Source: Candidatus Magasanikiibacteriota bacterium (lineage in GTDB: Bacteria; Patescibacteriota; Patescibacteriia; Magasanikbacterales; GWA2-37-8). Taken from it: a stretch of DNA of 40,082 bases. A program made the translations under genes and the position numbers. The notes beneath the pieces are model-generated. The model was not told the DNA's origin and ran no database searches. It saw only the letters and a list, made by a program, of their open reading frames with translations. Shown here in pieces: positions 12,164-19,865 of this stretch; positions within the stretch are counted from its first letter, which is position 1; each line of letters opens with the position of its first letter. The stretch covers positions 1 through 40,082 of the forward strand of contig CALRIA010000004.1 of NCBI GenBank assembly GCA_943359595.1. The letters are read 5' to 3'.

Positions 12164-13972
12164 ATGAATGATCATTTACGAAATTTTTGTATCATCGCTC
12201 ATATAGATCATGGTAAATCGACTTTAGCCGATCGTTTCTTGGAATTCACTGGGACTGTATCCAAACGCGACATGAAGAATCAATTGCTTGATTCCATGGA
12301 TTTAGAACGCGAACGTGGTATTACCATCAAACTTACACCAGTGCGAATGAAATATATATTAGATAACAAAGAATACGTTTTAAATTTAATTGACACACCA
12401 GGACATGTAGACTTCAATTATGAAGTATCACGTTCACTGGCTGCCGTAGAGGGCGCGGTACTGCTCGTTGACGCTACTCAAGGAGTACAGGCTCAAACTA
12501 TCGGTAATCTTTATTTAGCTATTGAACAAAATTTACAAATTATTCCAATAATCAATAAAGTCGACTCTCCAGCTGCTAACATTGAAAAAACGACTGCTGA
12601 AATTATTCATCTTTTAGGCTGTGACCCAGCGGATATTATTTTAGCTTCCGGAAAAACTGGCCAAGGGGTAGAAGATATTTTAAAAGCAATTGTGAAAAAG
12701 GTACCACCGCCAACCGATTTAAACACCCAACCGGCGCGTGCTTTGATTTTTGATTCCTCTTATAATGAATTTAAAGGTGTAGTGGCTTCGGTGCGAGTCG
12801 CTGATGGTGAATTAAAAAAAGGTGATCGAATCTATCTCATGGGCACTCAAACTCCTGCCGAAGTGTTGGAATTGGGATATTACACTCCAAAATTTCAGCC
12901 TGCCCCAATTTTAAAAAATGGAGAAATCGGTTATATCGTGACTGGCTTAAAAGAAGTACGTGATTGTCGCGTGGGTGATACGATTACCACTTTAAATTCA
13001 GAAAAAACTGGTGTTGCCAAAGAATCATTACCAGGCTACAAGGAAGTAAAACCAATGGTTTATGCCGGCATTTTTCCAAGCGAAGGTGATGGTTACGAAG
13101 AATTACGTGATGCTATTGATCGCCTAAAATTGAGCGATTCTGCATTAATTTATGAGCCAGAACATTCACAAGCGCTGGGCTTTGGTTTTCGTTGTGGATT
13201 CCTTGGCATGTTGCATCTAGATATTTTCCAAGAACGTCTGAAGCGAGAATTCAATTTAGAAGTAGTAATCACCGTTCCGAGCGTCGCCTACAAAATAGAA
13301 AAAACTAATGGTACTGGCATGACCATTCACAGCCCCCAAGAAATGCCCGAACCAAATCATATCCTTTCTATTATGGAGCCATGGATGACGTTGGATATTA
13401 TTACTCCAAAAGAATATGTCGGCAATGTGATGACTTTAATCTCTGAACGTCGTGGTCGTTATCTCAATACTGAATATCTCAGTACCGGTTCAGACCAACG
13501 CGCACTTTTACATTATCAAATTCCGTTGGCGGCTCTAATCACCGATTTTTATGATAAATTAAAAACCGTCACTTCTGGTTATGGTTCCATGAATTATGAA
13601 TTAATTGATTATGAAAAAACCGATGTGGTGAAAATTGATATTCTAGTAGCCGAAGAATCAGTGGAAGCATTAGCCACTTTAGTCTGGCGCGAAGATGCTT
13701 TTCACATTGGGAAAAAAATCTGCGAATCATTAAAAGATTCACTCCCCCGCCAACAATTTGAACTAAAAATACAAGCCGCCATTGGTGGAAAAGTAGTAGC
13801 TTCAGAAAGATTGGGAGCATTACGTAAAGATGTTATCGCCAAACTTTATGGTGGTGATGTCACCCGTAAAATGAAATTATTAGAAAAACAGAAAAAAGGA
13901 AAAAAGCGTATGATGGCTCATAGTAAAGTTGATATTCCTGCTGAGGCCTATTTAGCCGTATTAAAGAGATAA
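12164..13972 (+). CDS. lepA: Elongation factor 4 LepA
   Basis: RNFCIIAHIDHGKSTLADR, ERERGITIK, DTPGHVDF, GFRCGFLGMLH, GGDVTRKMKLLEKQKKGKKRM. ATG 12164 preferred. Confidence 0.98.
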   Translation: MNDHLRNFCIIAHIDHGKSTLADRFLEFTGTVSKRDMKNQLLDSMDLERERGITIKLTPVRMKYILDNKEYVLNLIDTPGHVDFNYEVSRSLAAVEGAVLLVDATQGVQAQTIGNLYLAIEQNLQIIPIINKVDSPAANIEKTTAEIIHLLGCDPADIILASGKTGQGVEDILKAIVKKVPPPTDLNTQPARALIFDSSYNEFKGVVASVRVADGELKKGDRIYLMGTQTPAEVLELGYYTPKFQPAPILKNGEIGYIVTGLKEVRDCRVGDTITTLNSEKTGVAKESLPGYKEVKPMVYAGIFPSEGDGYEELRDAIDRLKLSDSALIYEPEHSQALGFGFRCGFLGMLHLDIFQERLKREFNLEVVITVPSVAYKIEKTNGTGMTIHSPQEMPEPNHILSIMEPWMTLDIITPKEYVGNVMTLISERRGRYLNTEYLSTGSDQRALLHYQIPLAALITDFYDKLKTVTSGYGSMNYELIDYEKTDVVKIDILVAEESVEALATLVWREDAFHIGKKICESLKDSLPRQQFELKIQAAIGGKVVASERLGALRKDVIAKLYGGDVTRKMKLLEKQKKGKKRMMAHSKVDIPAEAYLAVLKR

Positions 13973-13977
13973 TTATT

Positions 13978-14484
13978 ATGACCGAAGATAAAAAAATCAA
14001 AAGATGCGTTGGCCCAATAATTTATAATTTGGAAGGAAAAATATTTCTAATGAAATCACCAAAATGGCGACAAGGCAAAGACGGTAAATTTGGCGAAGTT
14101 TGGACAGTGCCAGGAGGAGAAATTGAAAAAGATGACACTGGAACAGAAATAGAAACACCAGAACAAGCTTTAAAACGAGAAATTAAAGAAGAACTCGGCA
14201 TAGAACTGAGTCATATTGAATATATTGGCGAAGGAAGAAAATCCGGTGAAACAGATTTTATTAAACCAAATATTAATTTTGAATTTATAGATTTTATTGC
14301 CCGAACAGAAAATTCTAAAATTTCGCCTAATAGTGAAATTAGTGAATACGGGTGGTTTACTTTAAATGAAGCGGACTCATTACCTATGATCGATGTTACC
14401 AAAGGGTTTATCACACGATGCCGTCAGTTGGTTGAAAAAAGAATAGTCGAATTTCAAACAGAATATAAAATTAACAAAAGATAA
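13978..14484 (+). CDS. NUDIX hydrolase
   Basis: WTVPGGEIEK...ETPEQALKREIKEELGI Nudix box; EISEYGWF. Confidence 0.88.
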   Translation: MTEDKKIKRCVGPIIYNLEGKIFLMKSPKWRQGKDGKFGEVWTVPGGEIEKDDTGTEIETPEQALKREIKEELGIELSHIEYIGEGRKSGETDFIKPNINFEFIDFIARTENSKISPNSEISEYGWFTLNEADSLPMIDVTKGFITRCRQLVEKRIVEFQTEYKINKR

Positions 14485-14485
14485 T

Positions 14486-14581
14486 ATGAAACACAAAACA
14501 ATAAAACAAATTTGGACAGTAATTGCCATAATCGGTATTTTGGCCATGGTTTTTTTTACAATTTTACCAATTTTCCAATAA
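14486..14581 (+). CDS. Unannotated 31-aa single-pass membrane peptide
   Basis: ATG 14486 to TAA 14581 encodes MKHKTIKQIWTVIAIIGILAMVFFTILPIFQ. It fills the gap with exactly 1 nt on each side. Confidence 0.7.
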   Translation: MKHKTIKQIWTVIAIIGILAMVFFTILPIFQ

Positions 14582-14973: not shown

Positions 14974-16224
14974 ATGTCAGAACAACCAAGAAATTTAGAA
15001 TTCCATCATGTACCATACGGTCGACAAGATTTTGAATATGAACCAACTGGTGGATTGGCTGATATGTTTAAAAATGCTGATTATTTAAAACCAGAAATAA
15101 TTAAAAATTATATTCAACAAATTGTTGAACAGGTAAACCAAAGTCAGGACAGTACTGCTCAAAAGGCCTGTGTAATAGATTTGTTAAGAGAAGAAAATAT
15201 TCAAAAACTATTGGCACAAAAAGAAATTGACGCGGATGATAAAGAAGAAATAGAAAAAATGACTCTTTACTGGGTAAAAAAAATTAAAAAAGGAATAATC
15301 GAAGAATTAAAAAAATATTTACCAGATGATTTATATTTTTTTGTAAAAGAAAAAGAAAAACAAGATTACCATCTTTTCAATAAAAAAAGCATCATCATCG
15401 ATTCAAAAACTGATCGAGAATATTTTTTTAAAGAAAGTAGAATGTTCTCTAATGAAACAAGAGAAGAAATGGAAGAATGTTTTAGAATATTAAGAAATGC
15501 AATAAATAATTTAAAGAACCCAGAAAAAGAAATGCCTTTTATTATTAAACCAGAAAATATAGGACAAAATACCAAAGACGGCCACGTTGACAATCAATCT
15601 ATAAGTCTTACCTCCAACCAAGTGGATTTAACATCCATAGAAGACGCTCTCGGTGAAGAAGCGCACGGGAACATGTATTATAAAGAATTAGATGAAGCCT
15701 CTGCAAAAAAAGCATTGTCTGGCATTTTGGACTGTCTTAGAGGTACAAGATTTCTAGCTCAAAACGGTTTGACTCTCACTGACTTAGATACTGAGCCGAT
15801 CGGAAAAAATTTGGGAATAAACAACAAAAACAAAAGAGGTGTTCTTTTTGATTTGGATGGGTTACAACAGATTGGTCATAATATTAATAGGATCATCGCT
15901 CCATCTAAAGCAAACGGGGAAAAAGAGCTTCGTTTGTTTGCACCAGAATATAGATTGTTCGGTATAGAAGTTAACACTGTAGCTACTGCAGAATCGATGA
16001 TCTGGGAAATTGGTGATTCCATACTTGGGTTAGCCGAAATTCAAATCGACATACTTTTTAAATCTTCTGATTTTTTTGCTAAAAATAAATTAATCTCCGT
16101 ATGGGAAAAATTGAGAGAATTTAGCAATAAAATGATTGCCAAAAAACCAACGGATCGACCGTCGTTTGATATTTGTATCACAAAAATAGAAGAGATAATT
16201 AATAAACTTCCCGACCAACAATAA
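14974..16224 (+). CDS. Divergent protein-kinase-fold (Hanks-like) protein
   Basis: Motifs in kinase order: YFFK (K153), alphaC EEMEE, GTRFLAQNGLTLTD (D270)...KN (N279), FDLDG (D293), FAPEY, MIWEIG, PTDRPSF. Confidence 0.7.
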   Translation: MSEQPRNLEFHHVPYGRQDFEYEPTGGLADMFKNADYLKPEIIKNYIQQIVEQVNQSQDSTAQKACVIDLLREENIQKLLAQKEIDADDKEEIEKMTLYWVKKIKKGIIEELKKYLPDDLYFFVKEKEKQDYHLFNKKSIIIDSKTDREYFFKESRMFSNETREEMEECFRILRNAINNLKNPEKEMPFIIKPENIGQNTKDGHVDNQSISLTSNQVDLTSIEDALGEEAHGNMYYKELDEASAKKALSGILDCLRGTRFLAQNGLTLTDLDTEPIGKNLGINNKNKRGVLFDLDGLQQIGHNINRIIAPSKANGEKELRLFAPEYRLFGIEVNTVATAESMIWEIGDSILGLAEIQIDILFKSSDFFAKNKLISVWEKLREFSNKMIAKKPTDRPSFDICITKIEEIINKLPDQQ

Positions 16225-16225
16225 T

Positions 16226-18010
16226 ATGTCAAAAAAATGGATAATTTCTCCCGCAGTACCAGATGAATTTTTAATTGCTCACCCAGAACTACCGTCAATA
16301 GTAGCGCGTTTGCTATACAATCGAAATATAAAAACTCAAGAACAGATTGACGAATTTTTAAATCCAGATTATTTACAAGACATTCATGATCCATTTTTAT
16401 TTAATGACATGGAAAAAGCGGTAGAAATTATTTTTTCACATATTAAAGAACAAAAAAATATCGTTGTACATGGCGATTACGATGCTGATGGAGTTTGCGC
16501 ATCCGCAACCATTGTTAGTTGTCTACAAAAAATTGGTGCACAAAATGTTTCGGTATTTTTACCACATCGAGAAACAGATGGATACGGACTAAACATGAAT
16601 ACAGTCAAAAATCTCAAAGAACAAAAAACTGATTTAATAATTACTTGTGACTGTGGAGTGAGCAATACGCCAGAGGTAAAATTGGCCAAACAACTTGGTA
16701 TGATGGTAATTATAACTGACCACCATTCAATTCCCGCCGAAATACCACCAGCCGACGCCATCATTCACCCCAAAATTCCCGATGAGAAATATCCAGACAA
16801 AGGCTTGTGTGGTGGAGCGGTCGCTTTTAAATTAGTTCAAGCCTTACTAAAAAAACATCAGGAGAAAAACGCCACATTACTTGATGGACAATCACATGAA
16901 GCATTTGAAAAGTGGCTACTGGATCTAGCAGCCATCGCCTCTATCGGCGATATGGTTCCACTAATCGGTGAATCCCGCACACTTACTCGTTACGGACTGA
17001 CCGTATTGAATAAGACTCACAATTTGGGATTAAAAAAATTGATGTTTGTCGCTGGCATATTGGATGAAAACGACCAACCTAAACGAGGAACAATCGGAGC
17101 ACATACCGTTGGCTTTCAGATTGTACCTCGTCTTAATGCCGCTGGGCGTATGGATCATGCTAATAGCGCATATGCTCTACTCATGGCCAAAGACGAACAT
17201 GGGGCGGAAAATTTGGCGTGGCAATTGAATCAAAATAATATTGATCGTCAAAAATTAACAGAAAATTTAGTAAACCAAGCAATTAAACAGATAAAAGACA
17301 CTGGCCAAGAAAAAAATCCAGCTTTATTCGCGTTCGCTGAAGATTGGCCAACTGGAGTACTAGGTTTAGTATCTGGTCGTCTCAAGGATATGTTTTATAA
17401 ACCATCATTGGCGATGGGGAAAAATAGTAGTGGAGAAATCGTTGGTTCAGGCCGTAGTATTTCTGAATTTAATCTTATTGCTACTATGCAAGAACGACCA
17501 GAATTTTTTGATAAATTTGGTGGTCACCCTCAAGCTTGTGGCTTTACTATAAAATCCAAAGAAACACTAGAAGAATTTAAAAAATTCTTAAATAAAAAAG
17601 TGCTCGAGGGAACCAAAGAAATTGAACTGGTACCACAAATTAATATTGATTCTATAGTTGATTTAGATGAAATAAATTGGAAAATGTATGATTTATTACA
17701 AAAATTTGAACCATTTGGAATGAATAATGAAGAACCGATCTATGCCGCTTATGGTTTAACTATAGTAAATATTGATCCAGTCGGACAAGACGGCAAGCAC
17801 TTACGCATGAATCTCAAACACAACTCTCAAACAATTAAAAAAACCATCGGATTTGGGCTGGGTGATATCACTAGGCATCCCGATGATTGGAAAAATAGCC
17901 TACATTCTGGGGATAAAATAGATATTGCATTCTGTATAAGTGTGAATGAATGGAACGGTAATCGAGAATTACAGATGACTATTCATGATATTAAAAAAAG
18001 CACCGAATAA
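16226..18010 (+). CDS. recJ: Single-stranded DNA exonuclease RecJ
   Basis: HGDYDADG, PHRETDGYG, ITCDCG, TDHH, PRLNAAGR, GSGRS, GGHPQACG, EPFG..N.EP. Confidence 0.97.
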   Translation: MSKKWIISPAVPDEFLIAHPELPSIVARLLYNRNIKTQEQIDEFLNPDYLQDIHDPFLFNDMEKAVEIIFSHIKEQKNIVVHGDYDADGVCASATIVSCLQKIGAQNVSVFLPHRETDGYGLNMNTVKNLKEQKTDLIITCDCGVSNTPEVKLAKQLGMMVIITDHHSIPAEIPPADAIIHPKIPDEKYPDKGLCGGAVAFKLVQALLKKHQEKNATLLDGQSHEAFEKWLLDLAAIASIGDMVPLIGESRTLTRYGLTVLNKTHNLGLKKLMFVAGILDENDQPKRGTIGAHTVGFQIVPRLNAAGRMDHANSAYALLMAKDEHGAENLAWQLNQNNIDRQKLTENLVNQAIKQIKDTGQEKNPALFAFAEDWPTGVLGLVSGRLKDMFYKPSLAMGKNSSGEIVGSGRSISEFNLIATMQERPEFFDKFGGHPQACGFTIKSKETLEEFKKFLNKKVLEGTKEIELVPQINIDSIVDLDEINWKMYDLLQKFEPFGMNNEEPIYAAYGLTIVNIDPVGQDGKHLRMNLKHNSQTIKKTIGFGLGDITRHPDDWKNSLHSGDKIDIAFCISVNEWNGNRELQMTIHDIKKSTE

Positions 18011-19274: not shown

Positions 19275-19865
19275 TTATTTAGATGCCAATATATTATAAA
19301 CCATAACTAAATCTTCGGCAATACTCGGATTGTGAGTATCCGCCTCTTCTAGCGGCAGACCTAAAACTACAATTTTTTCCTCATCCTTTAGCATCTTTAA
19401 ACCCACTTGTGAGAGATTGCGTCTATCAGCAAAGAAAGTAACGTGTCGCGCTACCTTAAACAATTTTGGGAGATAATAATAATTATAAAATTTTATTAAA
19501 TAACCAAAAAAATCTGGTGTTTTAAAATCGTGGTGATAAGTGATAATTAAACTTTTTTCCGGATGATCTGTAACCCATTGCAAAATTTTTTCGGCTGCAC
19601 CAAAAAATGGACAGTGTAAATTTATTATATCATAATATTCCCAAGCTTCAATATTTTTTTCAACCGGCTCTTGTCCAACAAATTTTCTGGAAGGGGCAGA
19701 TTTTTTTACTTCAAATGTGTCTTTTCTAGTAACACTACCATAATTTAAAGTAATAGCATCAGCTTCTACACCAAGATCACTTTCCGCTTCTAAAATTTTA
19801 AAGGCTTCGGTATTAATTTCCTCAAAATAATCAAAAGCATTAGGAATGATATGAAGAACTTTCAT
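19275..19865 (-). CDS. Glycosyltransferase family 4 N-terminal domain only (half GT-B)
   Basis: MKVLHIIP, DIINLHCPF, LIITYHHD, LFKVARHVTF; only 196 aa with no donor-binding domain. Confidence 0.65.
   Translation of the reverse strand: MKVLHIIPNAFDYFEEINTEAFKILEAESDLGVEADAITLNYGSVTRKDTFEVKKSAPSRKFVGQEPVEKNIEAWEYYDIINLHCPFFGAAEKILQWVTDHPEKSLIITYHHDFKTPDFFGYLIKFYNYYYLPKLFKVARHVTFFADRRNLSQVGLKMLKDEEKIVVLGLPLEEADTHNPSIAEDLVMVYNILASK

Follow-up and report, generated by a model that had tools for sequence, protein, structure and literature searches.

The window analyzed here is a 40,082-nucleotide (nt) stretch of DNA from Candidatus Magasanikiibacteriota bacterium (GTDB lineage Bacteria; Patescibacteriota; Patescibacteriia; Magasanikbacterales; GWA2-37-8), corresponding to positions 1 to 40,082 of the forward strand of contig CALRIA010000004.1 in GenBank assembly GCA_943359595.1. 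Directly upstream of recJ it carries an open reading frame (ORF; 14974..16224, forward strand) for a protein of 416 amino acids (aa), hereafter the window protein, which is a new, strongly derived form of Hanks-type kinase. The protein has the Hanks-type, or eukaryotic protein kinase (ePK), fold and has diverged too far for sequence profiles to detect it; no curated family covers it. We regard it as likely that the gene encodes a divergent cytoplasmic protein kinase of ePK fold and behaves as a recombining accessory cassette. A prediction made earlier from the nucleotide sequence (the original prediction) had described the ORF as a cryptic Hanks-type kinase fold inserted between lepA and recJ, an active atypical kinase possibly directed at a host cell.

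Evidence for the kinase fold

Searches of the window protein against Pfam and NCBIfam, and phmmer and profile searches against the PDB, yielded no match, kinases included, and the label 'cryptic' is therefore appropriate. The Pfam model PF00069 (Pkinase) did not match the protein at E ≤ 1, its gathering cut-off of 31.7 bits not being reached; the relatives listed score between 20 and 29 bits with the same model, also under that cut-off. Neither the window protein nor its relatives matched SelO or any other atypical kinase family in Pfam.

A model of the window protein was computed with AlphaFold2 from the family alignment of 25 orthologues. It reached a predicted local distance difference test (pLDDT) score of 77.8 and a predicted template-modelling score of 0.68, with confidence values of 85-98 over most of residues 160-410. 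Comparison of the model with the PDB using Foldseek returned 1559 chains at E ≤ 1e-3, and all 50 matches listed are protein kinases, among them Pto, JAK2, DRAK2, Abl, IRAK4 and Mycobacterium tuberculosis PknB (template-modelling score, normalized to the target, about 0.6). A Foldseek search with an AlphaFold model was the check that the original prediction had proposed for itself, and no refutation came of it, a non-kinase fold being absent from the 50 PDB matches listed.

Searched exhaustively with HMMER, a set of 1.84 billion representatives yielded 59 relatives in all. Pkinase matches 25 of the 55 relatives scanned at E ≤ 0.1 (best E 5.2e-11) and PK_Tyr_Ser-Thr matches 18 of the 55; in whole-genome scans the Pkinase hidden Markov model detects the copies from sister genera with E values of 1e-6 to 8e-6. 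Alignment of the family by hhalign with 12 canonical Pkinase domains of Patescibacteria (candidate phyla radiation, CPR) gave a probability of 98.1% (E 1.2e-13, 218 columns), and the orthologue alignment alone gave 87.6%, over the C-lobe. Fold search, profile-profile alignment and transitive Pfam matches agree on the Hanks-type fold, as originally predicted.

Residue mapping and active site

Residues were mapped using the hhalign alignments and the secondary structure of the AlphaFold2 model. Conservation was assessed in the 25 orthologues and in a wider family of 55 sequences (18% mean column identity). The gene and its elements are as follows (positions in the window, strand, description):

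14974..16224 (+): ORF of the atypical Hanks-type (ePK-fold) kinase, 416 aa, hypervariable cassette (ORF list, AlphaFold2 model, Foldseek, hhalign, divergence trough)
14974..15084 (+): residues 1-37, N-terminus predicted to be disordered (pLDDT <50)
15085..15357 (+): residues 38-128, family-specific helical N-terminal extension, with D69, L71, I104 and L112 conserved
15364..15381 (+): DYHLFN, degenerate remnant of the Gly-rich loop, placed by hhalign opposite GGM..V of canonical kinases
15430..15432 (+): K153, the beta3 (VAIK) Lys, aligned by hhalign with the canonical invariant Lys
15565..15693 (+): residues 198-240, insert separating beta4 from alphaE, with the highest variability (28% mean identity among orthologues)
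15781..15810 (+): catalytic loop D270-L-D-T-EPIG-K-N279 (hhalign mapping)
15850..15861 (+): D293-L-D-G296, equivalent of DFG, with D293 as the metal-binding Asp (aligned with DFG by hhalign; follows the beta7-beta8 hairpin in the model)
15862..15948 (+): activation segment, variable (33% identity), closing with A323-P-E325 (= APE)
15997..16014 (+): M342-I-W-E-I-G347, corresponding to DxWxxG of alphaF, with Met in the place of Asp (hhalign)
16156..16158 (+): R395, the Arg of subdomain XI (hhalign; R in 51 of 55 sequences)

The only columns invariant in all 55 sequences of the wider family are D270 (the Asp of HRD), N279 (the catalytic Asn) and D293; among the 25 orthologues K153, D295, P324, E325, Y326, W344, E345, G347, R395 and P396 are invariant as well. 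D270 stands in the motif LTD, from which the His and Arg of HRD have been lost, and the kinase is therefore of the non-RD type; it is probably not gated by phosphorylation of the activation loop. D272 occupies the position of the catalytic-loop Lys (D+2), which is also lost. The four residues EPIG (274-277; 15793-15804) form a catalytic-loop insertion without canonical counterpart. This insertion is specific to the subfamily of the window protein: its column is gapped in 46 of the 55 sequences, and paralogues with 25% identity have a loop of canonical length, QDI(K/R)xxN. K278, immediately before the catalytic Asn, is K or R in the orthologues; such a residue at N-1 recalls the AAR-N of Tyr kinases.

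In the N-lobe, DYHLFN holds no Gly in the window protein, in line with the reported absence of a Gly-rich loop; N136 is invariant in the orthologues, eight of which (of 25) retain one vestigial Gly, at position 133. Lys occupies the beta3 position in 41 of the 55 sequences and Arg in 13. The alphaC glutamates (E164-E168) counted among the kinase motifs in the original prediction did not hold up: Glu stands at 167 and 168 in the window protein, but an acidic residue (E or D) is found at position 168 in only 7 of the 25 orthologues, and the canonical alphaC Glu aligns near C169 in hhalign. Conserved elements include M-P188-F-I, the equivalent of the 'HPNI' motif following alphaC, and G257 and F260-L-A of alphaE. 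The helical N-terminal extension (approximately 90 residues) is common to all subfamilies, including the g2 paralogues with 25% identity; modelled alone (pLDDT 67), it found no fold match in the PDB (best E 0.95). The remaining motifs lie where they had been placed originally (K153, LTD270, EPIG 274-277, K278-N279, D293-L-D-G296, APE, MIWEIG and D394-R-P-S-F398), and they go far beyond a chance resemblance. The reported absence of a transmembrane (TM) helix and of a PASTA domain was borne out by a maximum Kyte-Doolittle 19-residue mean of 1.06 and by a Pfam scan that found neither PASTA nor any other domain. The protein is predicted to be a stand-alone, soluble, cytoplasmic kinase.

The minimal active set named in the original prediction, i.e. 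Lys, catalytic Asp, Asn and the Asp of DFG, is complete in the window protein, and none of the 55 sequences deviates at the Asp, Asn and Asp. With D270, N279 and D293 as the only invariant columns, the family shows the signature expected of an active phosphotransferase rather than a pseudokinase, and the enzyme is likely to be active; the invariant residues together with a ratio of nonsynonymous to synonymous divergence (dN/dS) of 0.12-0.25 point to a kinase that is probably active as a phosphotransferase. Of the earlier description as an active atypical kinase, possibly host-directed, the first part is probably correct, and the second part found no direct support. In ePKs the Arg of subdomain XI pairs with the Glu of APE. 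The retention of that Glu (E325), of W344 and G347 in alphaF and of R395 is typical of kinases acting on protein substrates and suggests such a substrate here. From these features we infer that the enzyme is active as a non-RD protein kinase on Ser/Thr and that its N-lobe binds ATP in an unusual way.

A whole-genome scan found no canonical Pkinase, no PP2C phosphatase (PP2C_2) and no FHA domain in the genome from which the window was taken, and the cryptic kinase is therefore its only candidate for Ser/Thr phosphorylation. Three genomes of sister genera, G018 (locus L018), G071 (L017) and G192 (L015), encode a short canonical Pkinase of approximately 300-380 aa (E about 1e-42), so that the Ser/Thr signalling content varies within one GTDB family. 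(L and G numbers are the labels used for loci and genomes in this analysis.) Across the phylum, canonical Pkinase was found in 30 of 201 genomes (approximately 15%).

Hypervariability and recombination

Between the window and locus L004 the amino-acid identity is 94% for LepA, 88% for MurJ, 86% for RecJ, 83% for YtxH and 82% for TM129, the 129-aa membrane protein encoded upstream of the kinase, versus 38% for the kinase itself. Compared with L002, which belongs to the same genus, the flanking proteins are 51-91% and the kinases 41% identical; compared with L001 the corresponding values are 51-76% and 58%. Nucleotide identity in sliding windows is 74-80% in the TM129 gene, 37-63% in the kinase gene and 75-88% in recJ, and the boundaries of the trough are those of the ORF.

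RecJ and TM129 divide the loci into two clades, one comprising the window, L004 and L064 and the other L001, L002 and L063, and the kinase types cut across both. L001 and L002, for example, share 94% identity in RecJ and 43% in the kinase. The reverse case is seen between L064 and L065, where the kinase genes have approximately 92% nucleotide identity and a synonymous divergence (dS) of 0.22, versus approximately 77% and a dS of 1.64 for recJ, with a sharp step at the junction. Because a difference in dS between adjacent genes cannot arise from constraint at the protein level, recombination of whole alleles is the explanation drawn here. The rpoD-murG locus, at which other family members reside, shows the same pattern (RpoD 71-92%, MurG 57-81%, kinase 26-40%). 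The dN/dS of the kinase (0.12 and 0.25, versus 0.03-0.07 for RecJ) indicates selection that is purifying, but less strict. Mean identity to the window protein differs by region, from 63% in the core between alphaE and DFG to 38% in the N-lobe, 33% in the activation segment and 28% in the 198-240 insert. The data indicate that the gene is an accessory hypervariable cassette, the divergent alleles of which would be moved by recombination.

A diversity-generating retroelement (DGR) as the source of the variability was considered and rejected; no template repeat for the kinase is present anywhere in the genome, and the divergence extends across the whole ORF. The window's genome (G000) does encode two reverse transcriptases whose size (347 and 380 aa) resembles that of DGR enzymes (C7:614-2494 and C25:7652-9532; L066 and L067), each near a pair of repeats of 126-134 nt with 87% identity. 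These cassettes probably represent a pair of diversity-generating retroelements, with no relation to the kinase.

Distribution of the family

Members of the family were found in 4 of 401 sampled genomes of Patescibacteria and, within the GTDB family of the window, in 17 of 81 genomes and 10 of 41 genera, with up to two or three copies per genome. The other 64 genomes lack the kinase; two of them belong to the window's own genus, of which five further genomes were sampled. The family is confined to this one GTDB family of Patescibacteria; two members carry the public name Candidatus Magasanikbacteria. In many genera a copy lies between rpoD and murG (order DnaG-RpoD-kinase-MurG), with tandem duplicates in G434 and G489, and G492 has an extra copy at a third site. 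The genome of the window has a single copy, the other two known family loci being empty. At all three loci the kinase is predicted to be translationally coupled inside housekeeping operons. No functional neighbors are conserved across the family, the contexts being recJ, rpoD-murG, PfkB/transketolase, DoxX and the third site. In the rpoD-murG slot of G481 (L052/L058, G481:C3:81532-83001) the family member is enlarged to 535-544 aa, with extra sequence added to the kinase.

In a maximum-likelihood tree the copies from the recJ site form one clade (support 100/100) on a long stem, apart from the copies at the rpoD site and from the canonical kinases. Terminal branches have a median length of 1.26 substitutions per site.

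Operon setting

The kinase gene lies in a tight, co-directional string of genes consisting of a 213-aa ORF, MurJ, LepA, a NUDIX hydrolase, a 31-aa peptide, TM129, the kinase and RecJ. The genes around the kinase are separated by junctions of 1 nt. The features next to it are as follows:

13978..14484 (+): NUDIX hydrolase gene, inserted between lepA and the 31-aa ORF in the window only
14486..14581 (+): 31-aa ORF for a peptide with a single TM segment, MKHKTIKQIWTVIAIIGILAMVFFTILPIFQ, also called in L002, L003, L005 and L064
14583..14972 (+): TM129, multi-pass membrane protein of 129 aa, with its stop codon 1 nt ahead of the kinase ATG
16226..18010 (+): recJ, conserved flank, beginning 1 nt past the kinase stop codon
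17995..18022 (+): terminator-like hairpin with a 12-bp stem and a T run, closing the operon after recJ

The kinase is predicted to be co-transcribed within this murJ-lepA-...-recJ operon. A search for a promoter of its own gave 42 promoter-like matches, not above the 34.6 ± 6.1 expected by chance. The start of the protein, MSE.PR, is kept in the orthologues (25-sequence alignment). In relatives the order MurJ-LepA-(31 aa)-129 aa-kinase-RecJ-YtxH is retained. In G192 and G018, both from the same family, the order is MurJ-LepA-TM-RecJ without a kinase, the membrane protein gene and recJ adjoining; because of these empty sites the kinase is interpreted as an insertion/deletion between the membrane protein gene and recJ. 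The insertion 'between lepA and recJ' of the original prediction stands in this sense, and lepA itself does not adjoin the kinase, the NUDIX, 31-aa and 129-aa ORFs intervening. The G+C content is 31-32% across the region from 14 to 16 kb and lies inside the range of the window, as seen when the base composition was examined for horizontal acquisition.

TM129 has no family match in a Pfam scan. It was found in 14 of 61 genomes of the order, is commoner than the kinase, and lies directly upstream of recJ where examined (G192, G018). We rejected the idea that the kinase depends on it as an obligate partner or as a membrane anchor, as it is present without the kinase in G192 and G158, lies 285 kb away in G018 and was undetected in G071; TM129 is the ancestral upstream neighbor of recJ and not an obligate kinase partner.

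The 31-aa ORF, which is conserved among relatives, begins 1 nt after the NUDIX stop codon and ends 1 nt before the 129-aa ORF. The NUDIX gene is missing from L002 and L004. A hotspot of insertion lies between lepA and the 31-aa ORF; it is occupied by NUDIX in the window and by EamA and an asparaginase in L064 (2700-4548), and is empty in L002 and L004. The longest ORF for lepA begins at a TTG (12131) and overlaps murJ by 17 nt; an ATG at 12164 (MNDHLRNF...) fits the N-termini of the orthologues better and is probably the true start. Downstream, an unannotated ORF of 196 aa (19275-19865, reverse strand) is the second fastest-evolving of the block, with 51-68% identity versus 71-94% for most neighbors.

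Comparison with known kinases

The closest reference group is that of the bacterial Hanks-type Ser/Thr kinases (PF00069; PknB, PDB 1mru and 5u94). Shared features are the bilobal fold (Foldseek E 1.6e-7, template-modelling score 0.60-0.64 per target) and, in the same order and with the same spacing, the beta3 Lys, the catalytic Asp and Asn, the Asp of DFG, APE, the Trp and Gly of alphaF and the Arg of subdomain XI. Unlike these kinases, the window protein has no GxGxxG, alphaC Glu or D+2 Lys, reads LTD for HRD and DLDG for DFG, and has a four-residue loop insertion, Met for the alphaF Asp and an N-terminal helical extension of approximately 90 residues; it has no TM/PASTA module, lies below Pfam detection and belongs to a hypervariable, accessory family.

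Kinases of the IRAK/Pelle/Pto group (Pto, 2qkw_B; IRAK4) were the top Foldseek matches among those listed (E 2e-8 to 1e-7). IRAK/Pelle-type kinases include non-RD members, and the window protein likewise lacks an Arg before the catalytic Asp. The identity is 11-14%, a likeness of general fold with nothing pointing to a specific evolutionary link; in contrast to the window protein, members of this group are eukaryotic signalling kinases with an intact Gly-rich loop and alphaC Glu. Defence kinases such as Staphylococcus Stk2 and PD-T4-6 (in PADLOC) resemble the window protein in being single-gene, ePK-like, accessory and patchy in distribution; unlike them, it has no PADLOC match and lies outside a defence island.

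Proposed function and alternative explanations

In the reading that we consider likely, the kinase would transfer the gamma-phosphate of ATP to Ser or Thr residues of proteins within the cell. The phosphotransfer core (K153, D270, N279, D293) and the scaffold of the ePK C-lobe have been kept, with the Gly-rich loop, the alphaC Glu, the His and Arg of HRD, the catalytic-loop Lys and the alphaF Asp lost and a loop insertion and an N-terminal extension gained. Divergent allele types would be swapped by homologous recombination through the conserved flanks; three operon slots either contain or lack the gene, and it has been duplicated in tandem. Purifying selection holds the catalytic core, and variation falls on the N-lobe, the insert at residues 198-240 and the activation segment. 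These variable surfaces may track a fast-changing partner, either a protein of a phage or host cell or a variable substrate of the organism itself, and the kinase might act as a sensor or modifier in the interaction with that partner. The swappable, fast-changing behavior of the gene suggests a role in some molecular arms race or genetic conflict.

Several points weigh against this reading. The protein is a kinase without a Gly-rich loop and without a conserved alphaC Glu, both of which are normally important for the positioning of ATP. Replacement of the beta3 Lys by Arg inactivates canonical kinases, and 13 of 55 relatives carry it, a hint that nucleotides are bound in a non-canonical manner or that another reaction is catalyzed. 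Because the genome has neither a PP2C phosphatase nor an FHA reader, there is no recognizable partner for Ser/Thr signalling. The evidence for recombination is drawn from a handful of metagenomic contigs. Finally, the overall dN/dS is below 1, and part of the apparent speed may be due to old allele lineages and relaxed constraint.

Of the alternatives, an anti-phage function appears unlikely; it agrees with the population pattern but not with the genomic context. The kinase would be an abortive-infection sensor that recognizes a phage protein via its variable surfaces, phosphorylates essential proteins and halts growth, in the manner described for Stk2 or PD-T4-6. The single-gene, patchy and accessory occurrence with tandem duplications fits this, as do the extreme divergence and the exchange of alleles at fixed loci; kinase-based phage defences are documented in the literature (e.g. 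PMC11341870). Paralogues weakly match the kinase domains of PD-T4-6, mad6 and MkoA in PADLOC (E 5e-8 to 1e-3), but these matches are explicable by generic kinase-domain similarity, and searches of the window protein against PADLOC and PHROG found nothing. The genes reside in housekeeping operons, with no defence island and no adjoining defence genes, and the dN/dS is below 1.

An ordinary housekeeping Ser/Thr kinase of PknB/PrkC type, controlling cell wall synthesis or replication and evolving fast through relaxed constraint in a reduced genome, is likewise an explanation that we consider improbable. Its neighbors (murJ, lepA and recJ, or dnaG, rpoD and murG), the purifying selection and its status as the sole ePK-like gene of the genome would agree with such a role. 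A housekeeping gene would, however, hardly be missing from 64 of 81 genomes of the family, including close relatives in the same genus, or leave occupied and empty sites side by side; the differences in synonymous divergence and the incongruent genealogies point to allele exchange and not to rate alone, and neither a PASTA or TM sensor in the protein nor PP2C or FHA in the genome was found.

Rather improbable is a kinase-fold enzyme of different chemistry, such as AMPylation as in SelO, glutamylation as in SidJ or phosphorylation of small molecules, or a dead pseudokinase scaffold. The missing Gly-rich loop, alphaC Glu, catalytic-loop Lys and alphaF Asp, the beta3 Arg in 13 of 55 relatives and the extra acidic residue D295, invariant in DLDG, would be accounted for in this way. 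SelO-type enzymes, however, lack the equivalent of the HRD Asp, and pseudokinases normally lose the catalytic Asp, Asn and Asp, whereas D270 is invariant here together with N279 and D293. The protein retains the activation segment and the anchor that links APE to the Arg of subdomain XI, favoring a protein substrate, and no Pfam match to SelO or other atypical families was obtained.

Delivery of the kinase by an episymbiont as an effector that phosphorylates host proteins, the delivery to or action against a host cell raised in the original prediction, is very unlikely: the divergence and fast evolution of a family limited to a CPR lineage presumed to be episymbiotic, a hypervariability that fits an arms race, and the lack of PP2C or FHA partners in its own genome are set against the absence of a signal peptide or TM segment (CPR-specific secretion signals could escape recognition), the absence of adjoining secretion genes, the translational coupling to lepA/recJ or rpoD/murG in housekeeping operons and the fact that no host is known for the lineage.

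The divergent, recombining cytoplasmic kinase that we favor can be extended into a broader proposal, which we regard as tentative. The family might represent a 'polymorphic' class of kinases specific to Patescibacteria, with a fixed core, exchangeable alleles and variable surfaces that recognize evolving phage or host proteins, and would then serve as a system of immunity or host manipulation. Expression would in that case be guaranteed because the allele cassettes are parked inside essential operons (rpoD-murG, TM-recJ).

Significance

Patescibacteria account for a large share of bacterial diversity, and to our knowledge almost nothing is known of their signalling or of their interactions with hosts and phages. 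A search of the accessible literature on Patescibacteria or CPR organisms with Hanks-type or eukaryotic-like kinases found nothing relevant. The family described here shows how far an ePK can drift with Asp, Asn and Asp remaining invariant, and helps to define the minimal kinase. The gene-sized trough of divergence with its breakpoints, repeated at independent slots in essential operons, is an unusual population-genetic signature and marks the gene as a likely player in genetic conflict. The window protein also offers a concrete protein from an uncultivated lineage for expression and assay. If the polymorphic-kinase proposal is true, the family would be a conflict system built on a Hanks-type kinase and would represent a new organizational principle for accessory genes in ultra-small genomes.

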